Source of the DNA: an uncultured euryarchaeote
GTDB taxonomy: Archaea; Thermoplasmatota; Poseidoniia; Poseidoniales; Poseidoniaceae
DNA length: 37,565 nt
Direction of reading: 5' to 3'
Assembly (NCBI GenBank): GCA_937899865.1
Contig: CALBRH010000006.1
Location: 1-37,565, forward strand
The position numbers were made by a program, and so were the translations under genes. Below, piece after piece: positions 11,956 through 32,683 of the stretch; the stretch's first letter is position 1; every line of letters begins with the position of its first letter. Under the pieces are notes generated by a model that ran no database searches, was not told where the DNA came from, and saw only the letters and a program-made list of their open reading frames with translations.

Positions 11956-12789
11956 TCACAAGATGATTGGCAACAATCCAAGAGCAATTATCGGTGCTAT
12001 CCCCATAAACAAATCTCTGATAAATAATATCAACAATGTTTTCGAATTAATCTCTGCAGCCTTATCAAATTCTTCTTGCATTTTGTTATCAACCATATCT
12101 GATAGTTTTCCTGCACCACTTCTTGCAACCTCTATTGCAGCCCCAACTGCAACACTTGACAATAAACCAGCAGGTGTAAGTTTTCGAGCTTTTAAGGCCT
12201 TACTACCCCATATCAACATACTTGTTTTCAGTGCCCTACTACCTGTTTGTTTAGCAATTGTAGCATTGTCATTTACTGGCTTAGAATCATCTTTATCGGC
12301 AAATTTACGCAACCAAGAACGAACTGATAATCCTGTATCTGCTACTTTCCTTAGTTTGGTAACATCATGCTTCTCAACCGCCTTTAACATTCTACGAATT
12401 TTACCTATCCTAAAAATGTCAAAGAAGATCCAAAGAAATAGTAGCAAAAGAAGAATTGTACCGCCTAAATTGGAAACCTCATCCCACTCTTGCCATCCAA
12501 TTGGATCAAATAATAATCGTACTAATAATACAATAGTTGGTGGAAATAGTATTGCTAGAATCTCATTTGCCGCTAGCAAACCAAAACCCCTTACTGGTAA
12601 TTCTCTAACTTGCTTAAGTGCCCATCCTGCATGCGGAGCTAACTTCCTAATTGCATTTCTAAATGGCATTACTAAAAACAAGATTCGAAGTAACAAGGGA
12701 ACCCATATTACGATTGATACATATGCATCCCAAGGACCAGCAGGTGGAAAATCAGGAAGGCTTAGTGGTTGGGTAGGCATCGTCTTCAC
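11956..12789 (-). CDS. Hypothetical membrane protein (start uncertain: GTG 12789 or ATG 12780)
   Basis: Several TMs plus basic helical region; AGGTGA SD upstream of the GTG. Confidence 0.7.
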   Translation of the reverse strand: MKTMPTQPLSLPDFPPAGPWDAYVSIVIWVPLLLRILFLVMPFRNAIRKLAPHAGWALKQVRELPVRGFGLLAANEILAILFPPTIVLLVRLLFDPIGWQEWDEVSNLGGTILLLLLFLWIFFDIFRIGKIRRMLKAVEKHDVTKLRKVADTGLSVRSWLRKFADKDDSKPVNDNATIAKQTGSRALKTSMLIWGSKALKARKLTPAGLLSSVAVGAAIEVARSGAGKLSDMVDNKMQEEFDKAAEINSKTLLILFIRDLFMGIAPIIALGLLPIIL

Positions 12790-12885
12790 ATTGTGATTCT
12801 CACCTACCGCTTGAAACCTACGCAAGATATCCGAAGAAATCATCAAGTTCGACCATTTCGCATGTTCATGGTCTTCACTCATGAC

Positions 12886-13230
12886 ATGTCTGATTGGCTT
12901 GGATTTAATATCAACAAAGAATGGCTCGAAGAAAATATTTCTTGGCGAGATTTTGGCACTGGTGTGCGTTTGGGTAAGTTGAAGCGGGAAGAAAAATGCT
13001 CACTGGTTCTATACGATGCTGATTCAGAAGTTACTGTTGATGCATTCATGCCTCATATGCATCCTGGAGGAGAAGCCTATCTCGTACTTGAAGGAGAAGT
13101 TTGGGATGAAGACGGAACTTATCCTACCGGCTCTATTGTTTGGATGAATAGAGAGACTACTCATACACCAAAAACCAGAGGAAAGACGTTGATTCTCGTG
13201 CTTTGGCCAGAAGGTGTCAAAGCTGCTTAA
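12886..13230 (+). CDS. ChrR-like cupin domain protein
   Basis: PHMHPGGEAYLVLEG...GSIVWMNRETTHTP cupin motifs; start moved to MSDW. Confidence 0.85.
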   Translation: MSDWLGFNINKEWLEENISWRDFGTGVRLGKLKREEKCSLVLYDADSEVTVDAFMPHMHPGGEAYLVLEGEVWDEDGTYPTGSIVWMNRETTHTPKTRGKTLILVLWPEGVKAA

Positions 13231-13237
13231 TCGCCTG

Positions 13238-14734
13238 TTAAGATCTAACCCAATTATCCGGAAGATTATTGTCTTCATAGTCAAAATCATCTAGATGGAC
13301 AACGGTTAATGATAATTTTATTTCATCGGGAAATTTTGATTTGTTTAGAAATTTCTCAAATGATTGTAATAACTCCTTGAGTTCGCCGTTTCCATTTGCC
13401 ACAGTAATTACTTCCAAAGAATCTGGAATATTGTCCAAATCATCAAACTTTTCAATGAATTTACTATAACTTAAATCCATAATATCTTCAACCAATTTTG
13501 TTGTAACATCTTCTCCTGACCAAACTAAATTAGGAATTGGGCTTTCCATCCATGGACTACTAGCCTGTAATTTCACCATATTGTCAACCCACCAAGGACA
13601 TCTATTGAGGACTTTTTTTGCCAAAGACTTTCTTACCGCAATAAAATTATTTTCTTTGAAAAGCAGGGGTGATAGTTCTATCAAATCTCCGTGAATAATA
13701 TTCACAATATGAGGTTGATTTGTTTTGACATAAGACCTAATATTTTGGGGCTTCGTCAATAAGTGATCATTAATTTTAAGCCAGCCGAGGAATTTTTGAT
13801 AATATTCCAAGTCCCAAGTTTTCATTGCAGGAACCAAGTTTGAGAGGTTAACATGTGTGATATCATCTGTTAATTTTTGGATATAATTACAATTCCATAT
13901 GTCCCAAGTGTATGCATCAACATGTTCAAATTGATTTCTACCACTTTCAATTGCAGAATCAATTTGCTGTTTAGTTTGGGCAAACTCAGGTACTAAACCC
14001 CTCATCCACTTTTGGAAATCGGCTACATTGACCTCCTTACTCTCTCCATTATCACCAACAATGTACATACTTGCACTGTATGCTGTCAAGTCTGATGCTG
14101 AGTTCTCGCCCAACCACTCTAACTCTCCCGAATAACTAATATGACTACTCAATGATTGATAAAAATCTAGTAATTTATCTTCAGTTTCCTTGAAAGATAA
14201 TATTCTCTTTAAGTCATGCTTGTGGTCGAGAATAATCAAACCATCTTTCCTAACAAACTTAGATACATAGTCTAAGAGTGACTTTACTTGCTTTTTTCTG
14301 ATATCATCGCCAATATTTATCCAATCAATCCAATCAAGATACAATATATCTACTAACGGTATAGAATTTAGATATTCTTCTGCGTCTGCAGTCACTTGTA
14401 CTTGCCAATGTGGTTGTTTGCTATCACATATTCTGAAAACAGGATGGCCGTCAATGGTATCATTAATCCTCTGATACTTCATAAAATTACCAGTTGTTGA
14501 AACCATTCCAGGCCAAGTATCTGGAAAGTATGGATGCAAATCAATCACTAAATGTATGAATGGATGGTCGAATTCTTGAACAAAGCTCATACTAGCATGA
14601 TAATGATTACCAGCAGCAGGGTGTGCGATAACTAATGGTCTTGACTCATCTATTTTGAGATCGATACCAACGTTTAGGTCTTCATTAGAATGGATAAATG
14701 TCCCATATCTTTCTTTTTGATTTTTCATTGCCAT
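13238..14734 (-). CDS. Hypothetical protein; N-terminal class I SAM-methyltransferase-like region, C-terminal macrodomain-like region
   Basis: LVIAHPAAGN, LVIDLHP, VDILYLD, SKFVRKDGLIILD; IVNIIHGDL and ITVANGNGEL; GAGGTG SD, TGATG overlap with upstream gene. Confidence 0.6.
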   Translation of the reverse strand: MAMKNQKERYGTFIHSNEDLNVGIDLKIDESRPLVIAHPAAGNHYHASMSFVQEFDHPFIHLVIDLHPYFPDTWPGMVSTTGNFMKYQRINDTIDGHPVFRICDSKQPHWQVQVTADAEEYLNSIPLVDILYLDWIDWINIGDDIRKKQVKSLLDYVSKFVRKDGLIILDHKHDLKRILSFKETEDKLLDFYQSLSSHISYSGELEWLGENSASDLTAYSASMYIVGDNGESKEVNVADFQKWMRGLVPEFAQTKQQIDSAIESGRNQFEHVDAYTWDIWNCNYIQKLTDDITHVNLSNLVPAMKTWDLEYYQKFLGWLKINDHLLTKPQNIRSYVKTNQPHIVNIIHGDLIELSPLLFKENNFIAVRKSLAKKVLNRCPWWVDNMVKLQASSPWMESPIPNLVWSGEDVTTKLVEDIMDLSYSKFIEKFDDLDNIPDSLEVITVANGNGELKELLQSFEKFLNKSKFPDEIKLSLTVVHLDDFDYEDNNLPDNWVRS

Positions 14735-15273
14735 CACAAACACCTCTCATGACCCAAGGGGACTACTCTGAAGATTCTCTTAACTGGCCTATCCAATCTA
14801 GTATAATTCTGGACTTTTGATACTCCACCATAATTTGCCAGTTTTGCAGTATCATATATCATGTCCTTGTGCATAGTAACAATGTGAGCAGTACACAATT
14901 TACCATTTGAATCAATATCAAATGGAGGGTCTGTTGAATAAAAAGATACCAAAAATAAGTCTTTGAGTAGTGCTAATTCTTCAACATAATACTTCAATCT
15001 TCTAACATCTGTGTTACAATATGCTAATTGCAAACCAAACGGTTTCAAAGAATCAGACCAACTTTGCGGACATTGTGAATTAGTTACTGCTTTGAAGTGC
15101 TCAGGACTTGCATTAAATCCTAAACTTTCAACAATCATTGAAAGTGTTGTAGCAACACATGAAGGCCCAACTTGTTTCCTGTGTTGGATTTTTAGTCCGT
15201 TGAAATATGTGTCCTCATCACCTTTCCAAATCTTACAATTTTTATTAGGAACCCAATTAGCAATCATTGCCAT
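14734..15273 (-). CDS. Peptidase C39-like (papain-fold) protein
   Basis: Q-x5-C (RKQVGPSCVATTLSM), AHIV His, IYDT Asp; GGAGG SD. Confidence 0.65.
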   Translation of the reverse strand: MAMIANWVPNKNCKIWKGDEDTYFNGLKIQHRKQVGPSCVATTLSMIVESLGFNASPEHFKAVTNSQCPQSWSDSLKPFGLQLAYCNTDVRRLKYYVEELALLKDLFLVSFYSTDPPFDIDSNGKLCTAHIVTMHKDMIYDTAKLANYGGVSKVQNYTRLDRPVKRIFRVVPLGHERCL

Positions 15274-15476
15274 TCCTCCTTGAATTTGTTAGGATAATTT
15301 GATTTTTCACTCATTTTGATTTCTTTTTCATTTGATTGACATAATGGGCAACAGCATTCCACTTTTTCCCATTTTTTGTAATCATCTATCATCAATTTAG
15401 TATATTCAGTTTGAATATCTAAATAATCAACAAATTTTCTAATTATTTCATTTATTTTTATCCTATTTTCCTTCAT
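15264..15476 (-). CDS. 70-aa protein with CCCPLC motif
   Basis: GAGGTG SD overlapping upstream stop; overlaps next gene start. Confidence 0.65.
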   Translation of the reverse strand: MKENRIKINEIIRKFVDYLDIQTEYTKLMIDDYKKWEKVECCCPLCQSNEKEIKMSEKSNYPNKFKEEWQ

Positions 15477-15486
15477 TTTTTACACC

Positions 15487-16251
15487 TCACAAATACATCC
15501 AATCATCTGGCCTACCTCCAGGCCATTTCTCCTCAAACTCTTCTGCAAATTTTCTTCTATCGACTTCTTGCTGATAGATTATGTTCCAAACCTCTTCATC
15601 TTCAACAAGAAGTTGGATCATTAACAGTAATGATTCTGGAAATGTTTCTCCTTGTGGATTAATGTGTACATCTTGAAATTCCATATCTTGATATTTTGGC
15701 ATGTGTTTAGGAAAGCTAGAGAATCCAAAACCTGTTTTTTCTGAATTAGTCTCTATTTCCCAAGTTGCTACAGTTGCTTCTAAATTTGCAATATGGTTAC
15801 CTAATATGTGCTTATTCCTAGCCCCATTTCTGATGTTCCTTAATGCCGCGTAATGCTCATCCAAAGTATTGGGCGGCAGCCATCTATGGAATTCTAAACT
15901 AATATCGAACCTGAACCTTGAACCATGTTGTCCAATAACCGTGAAAGTATTTTCTTCGATTTCAATCGCATCTGTTTTAGAAATATATTGAGCCAATTTA
16001 AGCCAATCTTTCTTTAATTGTTCAGTTTCTTCATCTGTCAATATAGGTTTTTTATCCCATGATGAAGGAATGTAACCCAATGGTAACAAAATTAGTTTCA
16101 AATCACCTAATTCGTTTGGCCATTTAGTCCATTTACCTTTGACATTAGGATTGTTCTTGTTCCATGCTTCAATAATATGAAATTGAAATTTAGCAGAATC
16201 TATGTCTATATCCCAGTCGATTTCATCCCAGCCGTTAAATTCTCTACTCAT
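15487..16251 (-). CDS. Hypothetical Trp-rich acidic protein
   Basis: 254-aa ORF, ATGA overlap with the GNAT stop; no family recognised. Confidence 0.75.
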   Translation of the reverse strand: MSREFNGWDEIDWDIDIDSAKFQFHIIEAWNKNNPNVKGKWTKWPNELGDLKLILLPLGYIPSSWDKKPILTDEETEQLKKDWLKLAQYISKTDAIEIEENTFTVIGQHGSRFRFDISLEFHRWLPPNTLDEHYAALRNIRNGARNKHILGNHIANLEATVATWEIETNSEKTGFGFSSFPKHMPKYQDMEFQDVHINPQGETFPESLLLMIQLLVEDEEVWNIIYQQEVDRRKFAEEFEEKWPGGRPDDWMYL

Positions 16252-16682
16252 TCGAAAAACCTCCTTGTTGGAACTTTTCTATCCGAATGGCATACCTTGC
16301 ATGTAGTATTGATACAAGGCCATGGATAATCATTAGCAATAATGTCAATTTTTCCTCTTTCTTTCATTTTCTCCCAAAAGCCTCTACTACAATTCCAAGT
16401 ATCTACCCAAATAATGTAATTTGGGAAAGCCTTCCTAATATCTTCTACCATATTTGAACCATGACCTGATTGTCTTTTAGAGGGAAGATGGACTTTGAAA
16501 TTGCTAATTTCCACATAGTTTTCTTCAATGGTCACACAGCAATTTGACACTGGCATTCTGCCTTTGTAAATCCAGCAATTTTCTTTTCTAGGGTGTTCAC
16601 AAAATGGACCTATTCCGTTCATTGAAACGGCATCTTCGTCTATTTTGCACGCTTGCATTTTATTTTTTATTTTCATTTTCAT
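16248..16682 (-). CDS. GNAT-family acetyltransferase with Cys-rich termini (144 aa)
   Basis: Motif A KRQSGHGSNMV, motif B SRGFWEKM; AGGTGA SD; the ORF-track extension to 16772 is tRNA sequence. Confidence 0.75.
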   Translation of the reverse strand: MKMKIKNKMQACKIDEDAVSMNGIGPFCEHPRKENCWIYKGRMPVSNCCVTIEENYVEISNFKVHLPSKRQSGHGSNMVEDIRKAFPNYIIWVDTWNCSRGFWEKMKERGKIDIIANDYPWPCINTTCKVCHSDRKVPTRRFFE

Positions 16683-16696
16683 TTTATCACCTAAAT

Positions 16697-16771
16697 TGGT
16701 TGAGACACTGGGAATCGAACCCAGATCTGTAGGTCCGCAGCCTACTATGCTATCCATTACACCATGTCCCA
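16697..16771 (-). tRNA. tRNA-Arg(GCG), CCA encoded
   Basis: TGGGACA/TGTCTCA acceptor stem; D-arm GTGT-AATGGATA-GCAT; anticodon arm GTAGG-CTGCGGA-CCTAC; T-arm CTGGG-TTCGATT-CCCAG; ACCA end. Confidence 0.92.
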
Positions 16772-16781
16772 TTGATCGTAA

Positions 16782-16856
16782 TGGCGGGGGTACCCGGAGT
16801 CGAACCGAGATCTAAGGATTCGAAATCCTCTATGCTATCCATTACACCATACCCCC
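16782..16856 (-). tRNA. tRNA-Arg(TCG), CCA encoded
   Basis: GGGGGTA/TACCCCC acceptor stem; same D-arm; anticodon arm GAGGA-TTTCGAA-TCCTT; T-arm CTCGG-TTCGACT-CCGGG; GCCA end. Confidence 0.95.
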
Positions 16857-16867
16857 ATCATTTACGA

Positions 16868-16894
16868 TGGTAACTATTTGACATGCAAATAGTC
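16868..16894 (-). other. 9-bp hairpin followed by ACCA (microhelix-like) or palindromic operator
   Basis: GACTATTTG-CATGT-CAAATAGTT-ACCA, 11 nt before tRNA-Arg(TCG). Confidence 0.5.
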
Positions 16895-16920
16895 GGATTA
16901 TCTTGATCGATCTGTCAGTA

Positions 16921-16980
16921 CTAACTACGACGGCGGAATCTCCGCTTCAAAGAATTATCAGGGAAAAAATCAATCCACAT
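16921..16980 (-). CDS. Putative Arg-rich leader peptide MWIDFFPDNSLKRRFRRRS
   Basis: GGTGA SD 7 nt before ATG; Arg codons CGG AGA CGC CGT CGT; stop 64 nt before the first tRNA-Arg. Confidence 0.6.
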   Translation of the reverse strand: MWIDFFPDNSLKRRFRRRS

Positions 16981-17024
16981 TCTCAATTCACCAGTCCGAT
17001 ACAAGGTACCTAAAGTCGGCTTAT

Positions 17025-17040
17025 CGTAAAAAGTTTTCGG
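17025..17040 (-). promoter_or_regulatory. Candidate BRE/TATA for the leader-tRNA operon
   Basis: CCGAAAAC-TTTTTACG; predicts a TSS near 17000 and a ~20-nt UTR containing the leader SD. Confidence 0.45.
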
Positions 17041-17098
17041 TAAAAATACCGTATTTCGGCCATTAAATGTTAATTTTTGCGGGATTACAAAACTGATT

Positions 17099-17389
17099 TT
17101 ATCTATCTAAATCGTATTCGCCACTAATCAACATACCATCGAATAAGAATGGTCCAGCTGGCACTACTGCAGCAACACAACCATGGTAAAATGCTACTCT
17201 ATTCCAATGCCTACCAACTCCTGCTAGTAACAAGCCAATGAATAACACAAACAAGCCTCCATGAATTGCTCCAACTAGAGATACCAATTCTGGATCGCCC
17301 CCAATATACTTGACTGGCATTGCCACTGCAAACAAAAATAATGCAGAAAACCCCTCAAGATAAGATACAAAAGATACTAATTGTTTCAA
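17099..17389 (-). CDS. DUF3817 domain membrane protein
   Basis: SYLEGFSALFLFAVAMPVKY...GAIHGGLF...AAVVPAGPF. Confidence 0.85.
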   Translation of the reverse strand: MKQLVSFVSYLEGFSALFLFAVAMPVKYIGGDPELVSLVGAIHGGLFVLFIGLLLAGVGRHWNRVAFYHGCVAAVVPAGPFLFDGMLISGEYDLDR

Positions 17390-24338: not shown

Positions 24339-24348
24339 AGTGTACCAA

Positions 24349-25356
24349 ATGGGTATGGATTTAGCGCTAAAAGCCAAACTACAAAAGCAAAGATATCACA
24401 TTGTTGGAGAACATGGTGGAGTGAAAGTTTGTCATTGGACTAAAGAGTCATTACTTAGAGATCGTCAGTGTTACAAGGGGAAGTTCTACGGTATTGCCAG
24501 CCACAACTGTATGCAAACCTCTCCTGTTGTAGACCAATGTAATCTTGCATGTACATATTGTTGGCGAGAGCCGCACATGGACACATTGGAATTGACCAAT
24601 CAAGACCCGCTTGAATTACTGTATGAATCTGTTCGAGCCCAGCGAAGATTGTTATCTGGCTTTGGTGGCAATCCAAAAGTGCCAAGAGAAAAGTGGCTCG
24701 ATGCTCAAAATCCAAAACATGTTGCGATTTCTTTGAATGGTGAACCTACTCTATACACTAGACTTGGCGAATATATCGATTTATGTCACAAGCATGGTAT
24801 GACTACTATGCTAGTTACTAACGGAACCTTTCCAAAAGTATTGGAACGATTAGACCCTCTACCAACTCAACTATATGTTTCAGTAGATGCTCCTAACAAA
24901 GAAATCTTTGACAAAGTTTGCAAGCCTAAATGGAACTCCAGAGCTTGGGAGCAGTTTGAGAAAACTATTGATTTGATGCCTTCATTAGATACTAGAATAG
25001 TATCTCGTCATACTTTGATGAAAGGTATCAATATGAGTGATAAAAACATTCGAGAATTTGCTGCTTTAGACAATCGTGCAGAACCTGATTTCATTGAAAA
25101 TAAAGGCTATGTTTACGTTGGTCACAGTAGAGAAAATCTCAGTGCTGAAAACATGCCAAGTCATGATGACATAATGGATTTCTCTGCAAAAATTGCTCCA
25201 CTTACTGGAAGAGAAATTCTTTCTGACTCAAAGCCAAGTCGCGTGGCTTTAGTTGGTCATGAAATAACTCCAATACCAATTCCAGAAGCAACTATGTTCT
25301 TCCCTGAAGATTTAGGGATTGCTCCTCCGGTAAAGCATCTGCCGATTATCCAATAA
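24349..25356 (+). CDS. taw1: 4-demethylwyosine synthase (radical SAM, TYW1/Taw1)
   Basis: VKVCHWTK, CYKGKFYGIASHNCMQ, CNLACTYCWR, SLNGEPT, IENKGYVYVGHSR. Confidence 0.95.
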   Translation: MGMDLALKAKLQKQRYHIVGEHGGVKVCHWTKESLLRDRQCYKGKFYGIASHNCMQTSPVVDQCNLACTYCWREPHMDTLELTNQDPLELLYESVRAQRRLLSGFGGNPKVPREKWLDAQNPKHVAISLNGEPTLYTRLGEYIDLCHKHGMTTMLVTNGTFPKVLERLDPLPTQLYVSVDAPNKEIFDKVCKPKWNSRAWEQFEKTIDLMPSLDTRIVSRHTLMKGINMSDKNIREFAALDNRAEPDFIENKGYVYVGHSRENLSAENMPSHDDIMDFSAKIAPLTGREILSDSKPSRVALVGHEITPIPIPEATMFFPEDLGIAPPVKHLPIIQ

Positions 25357-29927: not shown

Positions 29928-32663
29928 TTATTCTTCTTCGTTGCCTAGAGCAATGACTCCAAGTACCAAACAAGAAAGAGCACCCAAATAGAGTAGTAGT
30001 GCAACATAGTCTGTTGGCACATCAAAGTTAGTCCAGTAAGTAAGTCCATTCTGATTGGTTACAATTGAACTCTCCATCTCCTCTGCATCGTCATCTTCAA
30101 TCTCGGATGATTGAACGATTTGGAATACTTCTTGAAGGTCAGTCATTTGTGGTGCAGTTGCTCTATCATAAGGATCTCTCATGTCTAGGTAGAAAGTAGA
30201 GGTTGAATCACCAGCAATAATCAATCCTGAAAGTTCCTCTGCTTGCATGTTAATCTCGGTACCGAAGTAAATAGGTAAAGCAGGAACCATAGCATCTACC
30301 AAAGTAAATGACTTGATTAGTTTCGCAGTGATTGGTCGTGTTGTTGGGTCAACAGATGCTGAACAATCATCTACTGGAATTCCCTTCACTTCACTTGTTC
30401 CTGAACAAGTTACCGCTGTGATTGCATAACCGCCCGCATCGACCTTGTCTCCATCACCAGTTAGGAATCCACCAGTGGTTTCGTCCAAAGTTTCAACTCC
30501 AACTAGGCCAAAGGTTGCCATCATCATTTCTGTGCTGTGCCAAGATAGTTCGTTAGAGCCATCTTCAAGGAGAGTCTCTCCTTTATCACAGTCTGAGTTG
30601 TGTCCAGTACAAATGGTGTAAGTTGTTGCAGGTCCGGTTGAAATTCCACCAGAGCCGTAGTAAGTAAGGTTGGTTTCCAACTTAGACCAACCAAGTGTTG
30701 GGTCGGTAATATCACCAGCTACGAAAGCACTTACAGGGTCTCTCCATCCAAATAGCCACTCGTTTACGGTTTGTGTCTTGTATGGACCATCACTGCCAAG
30801 ACCCATCAAGAATCCTGGTACGAAGTCATCGTATACTGCATCTCTTAGCATTACTCTAAGTGCTGCAGCTGCATTAGCATCAATTCCATAGATTAGACCA
30901 ATCGTTGTCTCATCCCAAGTCATTGGTGCACCTGGTGCCATTGTCTGTAAGTCTACTGGAGGAGTTTGTCCATACATTTCTCCATATAGGAATAAGCCAG
31001 CTCCTGTTGTCGTAGTAATACCAAGAGGCCCGTATAGTAGGTTTCCTGCTGCTGCTTCGTCAACAGATACTGGAGTTCCTTGTGGTGAAGCCGGCATCAA
31101 AGCAGTTCCCCATGCACCGCCCAAGTTTAGGCTGTAGGTAAGATAACCACCGTTAATTGGGTCTTCGCCACCAAGTGTTACGTTAACGAATTTTTCAGCG
31201 GTCATATCACCTGAGCCGCCAAGGAGAACCATTGGAAGAGCGGTTTGGCTTGTTAACCATCCACCAACCCAAGTAGCGATCGCACCATATTGTGCCATAT
31301 CTAATCCGTATGAGGACATTGCTGTTGCAGCGTCCATGCCAATGAATGTTGCAACACCGAATGCAGTTCCATCTTCATTAGTAGCAAGTAGACCTGTTGG
31401 AGTCTCAGTATCCTGTCCGCCAAATAGCAGATTCATTGCAACTGCGTTATCAATATCGACGCCAAGATAATTCATCATACGAGTTGATGCATTTACTGCA
31501 GTACCGGTTTGATCCATGAACCACTCGGAGTCGCCACCGCCATGTGTTGCAGAGAAAGCAGCAGATGCAATCCCGAAGCACATTGCATAATCTCGAGCGA
31601 TTGTTGCATTGAAGTCAATCTCTGTTGGACTTGACATTGCCATGTAGCCCCATATTCCGGCTCTTTGCATGGTTCCTGTGGTAAATGCTGGAGCGTTTAC
31701 AGCATCTGCAGATACTGAAGCATAGTCTCCAGTTGGGAATGCTTGGCAATGACCAGACAGCATCAATACACCCAACATCCCATTAAGTGAGACATCTTCT
31801 CCAGAAACTGGCATTGCTGTATTATTGAATGCGGACCAAATAGTATCATCGAAGCTAGGTCCAGTAAATGTGATACCAGTAGGATCGCCACCGGCTGCTT
31901 GCATTTGCTGTCCTTGGATTGCTTGAGTATAGGTAACAGCTGCACCTTCAAAACCAGGCATATTGTTCATGCCTGACATATTGTTTGCTGCAAAGTATCC
32001 ATCAAACTGATTGTAATAAGTGTCTGCTAGAGATGCTGCATAATGTGACTTTTCATCTTCCCAATCTTCAGGATCTTGACCATCAACGATAGCATCAAAG
32101 TTAGAATTGAGATCTGCAGCAGTTGCTTTACCAGCACTGAAAGATGTCATCTCTTGATTAATTGCTCCGGCTGCGAAACCAGCCTTAGTAAGATCCATAA
32201 TTCCAGAAATTGCCACACCTGTTGCTCCAACAACTTGTGGTTGGAATGGGATATTGGTCGTAGTAACCTCTGTATCACAAGCAGTTGTAGTGTCTTCTGC
32301 ACAGGTGTAAACCTTGGATTCACTGTAGGTTAAAGTTCCAGCAGTTTCATCGAACGAAATAATTTCACGAGTGTATGAAATATCATAATCAAAAGGTCCA
32401 ACCTTTTCATACACTGGTTCTGCTGCGCCTGGATTGGTTAAATTCCACGCGTAATAACTTCTCTCTCCGGTACTGGAGGCCCAATCCTCTTCTGCTTCCG
32501 TACAATCATCATTTGCACAGATATTATCTGCAGGGAAGGTCTCGAAATTATCTTCCACTGCACCTTCTACTGCACCTGTCGAAAGCATCGACAGGGGGGC
32601 ACTCAAAATTAGGCAAACCAAAGCGGCTCCAAGCATCATTTTACTATTTGATAGCATACTCAT
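29928..32663 (-). CDS. CD36/SR-B/LIMP-2-like two-TM membrane protein with a ~490-aa insertion
   Basis: YYAWNLTNP, EKVGPFDY, TTNIP, TQTVNEWLFGWRDP, YTICTG, SEVKGIP, ELSGLII colinear with CD36-family motifs; TMs at both ends. Confidence 0.75.
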   Translation of the reverse strand: MSMLSNSKMMLGAALVCLILSAPLSMLSTGAVEGAVEDNFETFPADNICANDDCTEAEEDWASSTGERSYYAWNLTNPGAAEPVYEKVGPFDYDISYTREIISFDETAGTLTYSESKVYTCAEDTTTACDTEVTTTNIPFQPQVVGATGVAISGIMDLTKAGFAAGAINQEMTSFSAGKATAADLNSNFDAIVDGQDPEDWEDEKSHYAASLADTYYNQFDGYFAANNMSGMNNMPGFEGAAVTYTQAIQGQQMQAAGGDPTGITFTGPSFDDTIWSAFNNTAMPVSGEDVSLNGMLGVLMLSGHCQAFPTGDYASVSADAVNAPAFTTGTMQRAGIWGYMAMSSPTEIDFNATIARDYAMCFGIASAAFSATHGGGDSEWFMDQTGTAVNASTRMMNYLGVDIDNAVAMNLLFGGQDTETPTGLLATNEDGTAFGVATFIGMDAATAMSSYGLDMAQYGAIATWVGGWLTSQTALPMVLLGGSGDMTAEKFVNVTLGGEDPINGGYLTYSLNLGGAWGTALMPASPQGTPVSVDEAAAGNLLYGPLGITTTTGAGLFLYGEMYGQTPPVDLQTMAPGAPMTWDETTIGLIYGIDANAAAALRVMLRDAVYDDFVPGFLMGLGSDGPYKTQTVNEWLFGWRDPVSAFVAGDITDPTLGWSKLETNLTYYGSGGISTGPATTYTICTGHNSDCDKGETLLEDGSNELSWHSTEMMMATFGLVGVETLDETTGGFLTGDGDKVDAGGYAITAVTCSGTSEVKGIPVDDCSASVDPTTRPITAKLIKSFTLVDAMVPALPIYFGTEINMQAEELSGLIIAGDSTSTFYLDMRDPYDRATAPQMTDLQEVFQIVQSSEIEDDDAEEMESSIVTNQNGLTYWTNFDVPTDYVALLLYLGALSCLVLGVIALGNEEE

Positions 32664-32683
32664 ACCTTGATGTAACAAAATCT

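Follow-up and report, generated by a model that had tools for sequence, protein, structure and literature searches.

A CGN-free gene unit behind extra tRNA-Arg genes in Poseidoniales, possibly kept translatable when CGN decoding fails

We analysed a stretch of 37,565 nucleotides (nt) from an uncultured archaeon of the order Poseidoniales (contig CALBRH010000006.1 of assembly GCA_937899865.1), which we call the window; it is contig C6 of a genome (G000) assembled to 2.01 Mb in 65 contigs. Five protein genes that follow two tRNA-Arg genes on the minus strand of the window contain none of the CGN arginine codons. On balance we favour the reading that a short leader open reading frame (ORF), tRNA-Arg(UCG), tRNA-Arg(GCG) and the genes p144 (optional), p254, p70, p179 and p501 belong to a single accessory operon of Poseidoniales, whose protein genes purifying selection at synonymous sites keeps free of CGN, most likely so that they can be translated when CGN codons cannot be decoded.

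An independent recount gave 26 AGA, 16 AGG and no CGN codon for the five genes pooled (13238-16682), identical to the hand count in a preliminary description of this DNA. By gene, AGA and AGG codons numbered 6+3 in p144, 5+5 in p254, 1+1 in p70, 5+3 in p179 and 9+4 in p501. The earlier counts for host control genes held as well, with 9/18 CGN in the ORF at 24340-25356 and 4/11 in the CD36-like ORF at 29928-32678. Genome-wide, CGN accounts for 0.433 of the 26258 arginine codons in 1521 long ORFs, and AGA is the commonest arginine codon (45%). At this rate the chance of 0/42 is (1-0.433)^42 = 4e-11. Ranking the whole genome, as the preliminary description had proposed, revealed no other stretch comparably free of CGN: the longest run of arginine codons without CGN, 41 when counted on ORFs of at least 100 amino acids (aa), lies at the module locus, the runner-up is 20, and none of 1000 shuffles of gene order reached 42. 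Only seven of 1186 ORFs with at least eight arginine codons are CGN-free, four of them module genes. The absence of CGN in the window is real and not due to chance.

The other three CGN-free ORFs of this size class encode GrpE, a DUF2299 protein and an AlaX-like tRNA-editing protein (table 1). Their AGA:AGG ratios are 8:0, 7:2 and 12:0, whereas the module genes mix AGA and AGG; the near-exclusive use of AGA in these three may reflect the AGA preference of well-expressed genes. A DUF3817 membrane protein gene just upstream of the leader (17099-17389, minus strand) also has no CGN, with only three arginine codons in all. The sole arginine codon of its orthologue in another genome (G002) is CGA, which places this gene outside the purged set.

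A profile search found the p179 family in 79 of 285 Poseidoniales genomes (all those at least 80% complete) and in 10 of 26 genera; by family, it was found in 68/161 genomes of the window's own family and 10/121 of a second one. The profile had no match in several genomes more than 90% complete, so the unit is accessory and patchy. Of the 36 other genomes of the same genus that were searched, 17 contained relatives of p501, as did one genome from a different family; the relatives in public protein collections are all Poseidoniales-type sequences. Around them the gene order p254-p70-p179-p501 is maintained. Wherever the contig reaches far enough, the genes lie directly behind tRNA-Arg(UCG), usually then tRNA-Arg(GCG); at two loci of the second family (f3), tRNA-Arg(GCG) is the only adjacent tRNA found. 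The architecture of a leader, one or two tRNA genes and CGN-free genes is common to two families.

The genes at these orthologous loci, about which the preliminary description had left the question open, proved to be CGN-free too. Across 40 species with a G+C share at third codon positions (GC3) of 0.26-0.76, counting only codons inside tblastn alignments, the unit has 17 CGN in 1214 arginine codons (1.4%): 0/313 in p179, 10/545 in p501, 7/292 in p254, 0/49 in p144 and 0/15 in p70. In flanking genes of the module loci, CGN reaches 37% for an ABC ATPase, 49% for a permease and 68% for the pooled flanks, and the unit stays purged even beside the many GC-rich neighbour genes with 80-90% CGN. With rising GC3, AGG takes over from AGA in the unit genes and CGN stays out. 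One conceivable purpose of such a codon choice would be a throttle: the output of genes using only AGA and AGG (AGR) would be set by the level of AGR-reading tRNAs, keeping potentially toxic proteins low, much like bldA/TTA control in Streptomyces. AGR codons are indeed rare in the flanking genes of GC-rich species (10-20% of arginine codons), so that minor tRNAs would be needed there. The throttle is contradicted in low-GC species, including that of the window, where AGA is the commonest arginine codon and the purge is equally complete, and it leaves the link to CGN-reading tRNAs and to the CGN-rich leader described below unexplained. We regard it as very unlikely.

Variants of the unit were also seen. 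At one locus of family f3 (L029, G040:C16) the order is tRNA-Ile(GAU), tRNA-Arg(GCG), a p254-like gene and p179; neither tRNA-Arg(UCG) nor a leader ORF was found at this locus, and p179 has 0/13 CGN, yet the p254-like gene carries five CGA codons. At eight loci (L012, L017, L023, L030, L039, L041, L049 and L051) there are two paralogues of p254, in tandem and strongly diverged, with p179 single and well conserved.

The depletion is specific to CGN. In low-GC and high-GC loci alike, depletion is strongest for the four CGN codons (log2 -1.7 to -4.6), and every other codon deviates by about 1 log2 unit or less in the module loci. The dinucleotide CpG survives in other frames, as the preliminary description had noted: NCG codons make up 0.19 of NCN codons in the unit and 0.13 in the flanks, and junctions between a codon ending in C and one beginning with G are not depleted. 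Both results reject CpG depletion or CpG-directed mutation as the cause. Foreign codon usage acquired from a CGN-avoiding donor, which the preliminary description had named as a possible objection, is likewise rejected, because only CGN deviates and the GC3 of the unit follows that of each host from 0.26 to 0.76; the homologues are confined to Poseidoniales.

Shared ancestry does not account for the pattern either. At seven invariant arginine columns of p179 in 35 species, AGA and AGG have replaced one another (AGA:AGG e.g. 19:16, 17:18 and 24:11) and CGN never appears (0/245 codons), though AGA to CGA is a single synonymous change. Avoidance of CGN as a trait of the protein family is rejected by distant p179 homologues (34-42% identity), which do use CGN (6/9, 1/7 and 3/5); those counted lie on contigs with no adjacent tRNA in the sequenced flank and no other module genes. 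CGN codons also occur in decayed modules. In one of these (G016; L020, C5:303000-320000), p501 is split, p179 has in-frame TGA stops and the CGN codons are located in degraded stretches. In another (G009; L019, C3), p501 has an internal stop and all five of its CGN codons lie from codon 411 on, around and past that stop.

We could also reject a tRNA-targeted integrative island or prophage remnant. No att-type repeat of the tRNA 3' end was present in 12700-17100, GC3 is host-like, and no relatives of p179 or p501 were found on IMG/VR viral contigs. Among the ORFs within about 6 kb in 12 loci, which were not scanned one by one, we noticed none that looked like an integrase. A compositional or historical artefact, be it acquisition at a tRNA integration hotspot from an AGR-preferring donor such as a virus or low-GC archaeon, or CpG-directed mutation, would draw some support from the slightly higher AT content of the window cluster relative to its neighbours, from the frequent use of tRNA genes as integration sites and from a phage-type D-arm in the module tRNAs. 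The near-zero CGN at every host GC3, the undepleted NCG codons and junctions, the repeated turnover of conserved arginine codons without CGN, the lack of integration traces and viral relatives just described and the confinement of the protein families to Poseidoniales-type sequences make it, in our judgement, extremely unlikely. Together, the controls for composition, ancestry, protein family, decay and island origin indicate that intact copies are under purifying selection against in-frame CGN.

ARAGORN called both tRNA-Arg genes of the window, and their Rfam scores (table 1) compare with a gathering score of 29. The genome has 39 tRNA genes, nearly all single copy, but two for tRNA-Arg(GCG) and two for tRNA-Arg(UCG). 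The housekeeping copies (tRNA-Arg(UCG) at C14:16719-16795 and tRNA-Arg(GCG) at C38:20288-20364) are typical archaeal tRNAs of 77 nt, GC-rich (61-62%), from which the module tRNAs diverge; the latter have one common D-arm, two G-U pairs in the D stem and 51-53% GC. Housekeeping-type copies are retained elsewhere in five near-complete module-bearing genomes. Judged by their sequences, the module tRNAs are extra, divergent, phage-like copies. They nevertheless look like functional arginine tRNAs. More than 50 orthologous module tRNAs keep their anticodons and show compensatory changes in the stems, the 1:72 pair of tRNA-Arg(GCG) covaries among species (A-U, U-A or G-C), and the arginine-acceptor features C35, G36 and an A at the position of A20 are kept.

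The likeness to phage tRNAs lies in a 19-nt D-arm motif, ATGGTGTARYGGATAGCAT, which is common to the module tRNAs (window 16697-16856) and lacking in the host's housekeeping tRNA-Arg genes. It is found on 81 IMG/VR viral contigs, and all 77 viral tRNAs with the motif were assigned to tRNA-Arg by ARAGORN (68 UCU, 5 CCU, 2 UCG, 1 GCG and 1 ACG; the scan covered loci L074-L153 from IMG/VR and L155-L234 from GTDB genomes). Cellular genomes with the motif are mainly Poseidoniales, joined by some Bacteroidota (Spirosoma, Winogradskyella) and some DPANN archaea. A similar tRNA-Arg(UCG) is present on two viral contigs; both are phages rich in tRNA genes that use CGN normally and lack module genes.

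Two further tRNA observations concern single loci. In the 130-nt gap between tRNA-Arg(UCG) and the first gene of one locus sits a second tRNA-like sequence (L065:1667-1796, minus strand) of the housekeeping D-arm type, with a GCG anticodon context and no ARAGORN call. In a single-contig genome (G087:C1:31780-31880), the match to the housekeeping-type tRNA-Arg(UCG) is split into two segments (query 1-44 and 47-77) about 26 nt apart, which is consistent with a tRNA intron.

Upstream of the tRNAs lies the leader ORF, in which four of the five arginine codons are CGN (CGG, CGC, CGT and CGT). Almost every module locus with sufficient sequence upstream has a CGN-rich leader. In related loci it has about 13-30 codons, of which 2-6 are CGN, and lies 63-108 nt upstream of the tRNA(s), with a Shine-Dalgarno (SD) sequence in front in the majority of loci for which the complete ORF could be read. 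We saw it in three sequence types, namely genus g1, genus g21 (GC3 about 0.7) and family f3. A box similar to that of the window, cgaaa-N-TTTTTTA, occurs at the same relative position upstream in related loci. RNAalifold, applied to the spacers of eight genus-level relatives (the window's own was not among them), predicted a hairpin whose 5' arm comprises the last CGN codons and the stop codon, and a second, longer hairpin before the tRNA with compensatory pairs (GC/AU 4:4; UA/CG 4:4). No alternative pairing of the terminator/antiterminator kind was demonstrated for the leader-spacer hairpins of the relatives.

Behind the tRNAs the five ORFs are tightly packed, with overlaps of 4-10 nt or a gap of 10 nt. 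The ATG of p144 lies 14 nt past the tRNA 3' end in the window, and 9-47 nt separate the tRNA 3' end from the first protein gene in 17 of 19 loci. Since such gaps leave little space for a separate promoter, we infer that the genes are co-transcribed with the tRNAs.

Table 1. Features of the CGN-free unit in the window, and other CGN-free ORFs of the same genome.
Feature	Position	Strand	Remarks
BRE/TATA-like box (B recognition element/TATA), ccgaaaactttttacgataa	17021..17040	minus	Upstream of leader ORF; sequence read directly; putative promoter
Leader ORF, MWIDFFPDNSLKRRFRRRS, 19 codons plus stop	16921..16980	minus	GGTGA SD in front; presumed translated
Structured spacer, leader stop codon to first tRNA	16857..16920	minus	Predicted by RNAalifold on relatives
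tRNA-Arg(UCG), extra copy, 75 nt	16782..16856	minus	CCA encoded; 53% GC; ARAGORN; Rfam RF00005, 62.7 bits
tRNA-Arg(GCG), extra copy, 75 nt	16697..16771	minus	U1-A72 and A73; 51% GC; ARAGORN; Rfam, 62.6 bits
p144, optional first gene, possible small GNAT	16248..16682	minus	GGTGA SD; 0/9 arginine codons CGN
p254, core gene, no assigned fold	15487..16251	minus	0/10 arginine codons CGN
p70, small acidic protein	15264..15476	minus	0/2 arginine codons CGN; 10-nt overlap with p179 start
p179, candidate papain-like (C39-like fold) cysteine peptidase	14734..15273	minus	0/8 arginine codons CGN
p501, Rossmann and macrodomain-like domains	13238..14743	minus	0/13 arginine codons CGN
GrpE ORF	C4:4832-5407		Other CGN-free ORF of G000
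DUF2299 ORF	C38:3300-3938		Other CGN-free ORF of G000
AlaX-like ORF	C60:64926-65690		Other CGN-free ORF of G000

Searches of Pfam, PHROGs, PADLOC and NCBIfam gave no usable match for any of the five proteins, and no module protein matched aminoacyl-tRNA synthetase or biosynthetic families. Of the labels given in the preliminary description, 'C39-like' for p179 stands at the level of the fold, and 'GNAT' for p144 comes down to a lead from a protein language model: the neighbours of p144 in that model include GNAT clusters (scores 0.94-0.95), with no Pfam match at E up to 10. A stretch R/S-x-x-G-H/F-G in p144, to be compared with the GNAT motif R/Q-x-x-G-x-G/A, is only partly conserved. The protein may be a small GNAT; homologues with 48-66% identity were seen at five further loci (G002, G058, G071, G094 and one from the motif scan). 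The p254 family is found only in Poseidoniales and marine metagenomes; it had no match in the protein atlas, and a profile search of PDB sequences returned only weak matches at chance level. In p70 a C-terminal F-x-x-E-W is conserved, and the Cys cluster of the window copy is not. A complex prediction for p70 and p179 scored 0.00 and carries no weight either way.

The AlphaFold2 (AF2) model of p179 (predicted local distance difference test, pLDDT, 79) had its best Foldseek matches among C39 double-glycine peptidase domains and papain-like toxins (6mpz, 3k8u and PCAT1), with E about 4e-4 and a template modelling (TM) score by target of 0.56-0.67. The residues Q34, C39, H130 and D141, which recall the Gln...Cys, His, Asp pattern of these enzymes, are invariant in 13 sequences. 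We thus consider p179 a candidate cysteine peptidase of predicted papain-like (C39-like) fold. It differs from peptidase C39, the double-glycine leader peptidase domain of PCAT/ComA exporters, in its low identity (12-15%) and in being stand-alone and cytoplasmic-looking rather than fused to an ABC exporter, and no Pfam C39 match was obtained even at E up to 10. An ABC ATPase and a permease adjoin the unit in a few loci only (G000, G002, G025 and G035), outside the CGN-free unit. On a Logan contig (SRR12687326), the second gene upstream of a distant p179 homologue (P0063, 170 aa) encodes an 807-aa DEAD/Helicase_C/MZB helicase (DUF1998-type), a type common in defence islands.

The model of p501 (pLDDT 82) has two domains, one Rossmann and class-I-methyltransferase-like (residues 14-232), the other macrodomain-like (332-498). 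Residues 14-232 matched many methyltransferases (Foldseek E 2e-6 to 5e-4, VIA-align Z 6.5-8.1). The SAM-binding (S-adenosylmethionine) glycine motif I, E/DxGxGxG, is not present; its site reads L-V-I-A-H-P-A-A-G, and R35, P36, H41, P42 and A44 are invariant in 26 sequences. No methyltransferase Pfam family exceeded threshold in the 26 p501 relatives, which gave scattered sub-threshold matches only. For residues 331-501, VIA-align gave Z 9.0 to 1zr5 (the macroH2A macrodomain), 8.5 to 9qyf and 8.0-8.1 to PARP14 and bacterial macrodomains; values of 7-8 are common for models with no clear match, hence moderate support for a macrodomain-like C-terminal domain. The likeness to the macrodomains of macroH2A, PARP9/14 and bacteria covers about 135 of the last 170 residues (Z 8-9, root-mean-square deviation 3.2-3.5 A). 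Unlike known macrodomains, with which it has 7-13% identity, this domain has no Pfam match (PF01661 included) and no glycine-rich ADP-ribose loop evident by eye, and it is fused to a Rossmann domain with the invariant H-P-A-A-G in place of the SAM-binding glycine motif.

Genes wholly insulated from CGN make sense only if they are needed while CGN decoding fails, which suggests the leader as an on-switch at CGN pauses. Transcription from the promoter would yield an RNA that starts with a translated leader of about 20 codons, several of them CGN near its end. When charged CGN-reading tRNA is scarce, a ribosome would pause in the leader, and the pause would alter folding or processing of the spacer such that more downstream RNA is made or matured. 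This RNA would supply the extra CGN-reading tRNAs and, after processing of the tRNA 3' end, an mRNA whose ORFs require AGR-reading tRNAs only, so that the papain-like peptidase and the Rossmann and macro-like protein could still be produced. The preliminary description had proposed that the proteins remain translatable when CGN-reading tRNAs fail and that, with the leader and tRNAs, they form a sensor-resupply-effector unit. Translatability and the existence of one unit are both supported by the architecture conserved in two families; sensing of CGN decoding by the leader is something we infer.

Two triggers could set off such a response. In the first, a virus or a competitor damages tRNA-Arg in an isoacceptor-specific way, for which phage tRNAs that make good the losses to anticodon nucleases offer an established parallel (PMC10264068). 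This trigger fits the accessory distribution, the decaying copies, the conflict-type domains, the phage-type tRNAs, the helicase neighbour and the fast divergence: p501 and p254 have 25-35% identity between species and the flanking ABC and permease genes 72-88%, so that the unit genes diverge much faster. The second is arginine limitation, under which the heavily used CGN isoacceptors would lose their charge first (selective charging); this fits as well. Argininosuccinate synthase (PF00764), the one gene of the arginine pathway that we searched, exceeded the cut-off in 0/285 Poseidoniales genomes and in 14/14 control genomes. Poseidoniales therefore probably import arginine, and auxotrophy is probably order-wide; with the enzyme found in none of the 285, no correlation with module presence was possible.

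These results would also suit a purely nutritional unit that answers arginine limitation and has no role in conflict. Its leader would sense uncharged CGN isoacceptors, the extra tRNAs would rebalance charging in favour of the much-used CGN box, and the AGR-only genes would encode scavenging or remodelling enzymes. Besides the probable import of arginine, selective charging is supported for arginine isoacceptors (PMC1183508) and a split-box sensor is known for serine (PMC3862929). However, the unit is accessory although all members seem to share the auxotrophy, and the fast divergence and decay form a pattern seen more often in conflict genes. CGN, at 43%, is not a high-demand box in the low-GC genome of the window, yet the purge is complete there, and no module protein resembles a transporter or an enzyme of arginine metabolism. 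A purely nutritional role appears rather unlikely to us.

The cause of failing CGN decoding might instead be the module itself, its own genes avoiding CGN to escape the damage. The odd tRNAs could be mischarged, or tRNA-bound arginine could be modified by the GNAT-like, Rossmann or macro-like proteins; alternatively, the module could be an abortive-infection or addiction device whose enzymes disable the CGN-reading tRNAs of the host. Such self-immunity would agree with tRNAs that are unlike the host's in GC content, D-stem G-U pairs, phage-type D-arm and the U1-A72 or A1-U72 pair of the GCG species, with a papain-like peptidase, a macro-like domain and a possible GNAT, a set typical of toxin and conflict systems, and with the patchy distribution and decaying copies. 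But the tRNAs keep arginine-acceptor features and compensatory stem changes, p144 is optional and so not essential to the mechanism, and a toxin that ruins 40-90% of the host's arginine codons would need tight control, with no antitoxin-like partner evident. A CGN-rich leader is also harder to explain. We hold self-immunity to be unlikely.

Several points speak against our favoured reading of an operon kept translatable through CGN failure. The anticodon loops of some module tRNAs are identical to those of the host, so nothing obvious marks these tRNAs as nuclease-resistant variants. Between leader and tRNA, the module loci showed no consistent T-tract, and a classical attenuator with an oligo-T terminator is therefore not demonstrated. 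In modules with tRNA-Arg(UCG) alone, the leader nonetheless contains CGT and CGC and the genes avoid every CGN codon all the same, so tRNAs and codons do not correspond one to one. None of the five proteins matched PADLOC-DB v2 at E up to 1. With only two arginine codon boxes, avoiding CGN cannot be told from requiring AGR by sequence. To our knowledge, leader-peptide attenuation is not established in Archaea. A fuller version of our reading, which we put forward tentatively, would see here a new archaeal stress or immune module, in which the leader gauges CGN decoding and its failure calls up phage-like replacement tRNAs and CGN-free effector genes.

A search of the full-text literature found no published description of a unit made of leader, tRNAs and CGN-free genes. 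Codon-specific regulons share with it that one synonymous codon class decides protein production under a given tRNA state. Examples are bldA/TTA control in Streptomyces and MazF-mt9, whose cleavage of tRNA-Lys(UUU) favours AAA-poor transcripts. In sinR, the choice between TCN and AGY serine codons acts as a starvation sensor (PMC3862929). In those regulons the sensitive codon is present, whereas in the module a whole codon box is absent from an operon that is physically linked to the tRNAs for this box.

Among known systems, the closest in logic is leader-peptide attenuation in bacteria, taken together with the codon bias of selective charging. The codons used in attenuator leaders are those with the greatest sensitivity to starvation, response genes favour robust codons, and experiments have confirmed selective charging for arginine isoacceptors (PMC1183508); the same paper describes the selective-charging rule, due to Elf et al. 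2003, by which such codons are chosen. In amino-acid and pheST operons, too, a short leader enriched in the regulatory codons of one amino acid is followed by structured RNA, and the downstream genes favour codons that remain readable when the regulatory codons stall. In contrast to these systems, the module has an archaeal host, its products are tRNAs for the leader's own codons and genes of no known family instead of biosynthetic enzymes, its ORFs are purged of an entire codon box and not mildly biased, and no terminator/antiterminator pair with a U-tract was identified in it.

Phage tRNAs can replace host tRNAs cut by anticodon nucleases (PMC10264068), and the module resembles such supplementation in having divergent extra tRNAs on an accessory element beside the host isoacceptors and in the common 19-nt D-arm motif. 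Unlike phage tRNAs, those of the module are chromosomal and stand in a conserved operon with a sensor-like leader and purged genes, with no phage genes nearby, and their anticodon-loop differences from the host tRNAs are inconsistent.

All-or-none synonymous choice is rare, and here a whole codon box is kept out across two families of abundant ocean archaea. The local loss of one codon box beside its cognate tRNA genes offers a simple genomic signature with which similar units may be sought, and four protein families of no known function gain a testable context. If our reading is true, cells would treat the decoding capacity for one codon box as a signal to be monitored and defended. Archaea and tRNA genes would come within the reach of leader-peptide sensing, the first description for both, and the unit would be a host-side counterpart of phage tRNA supplementation against tRNA-targeting weapons. 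Isoacceptor-specific loss of tRNA-Arg, through attack or arginine scarcity, would then be a real selective force in marine Poseidoniales.

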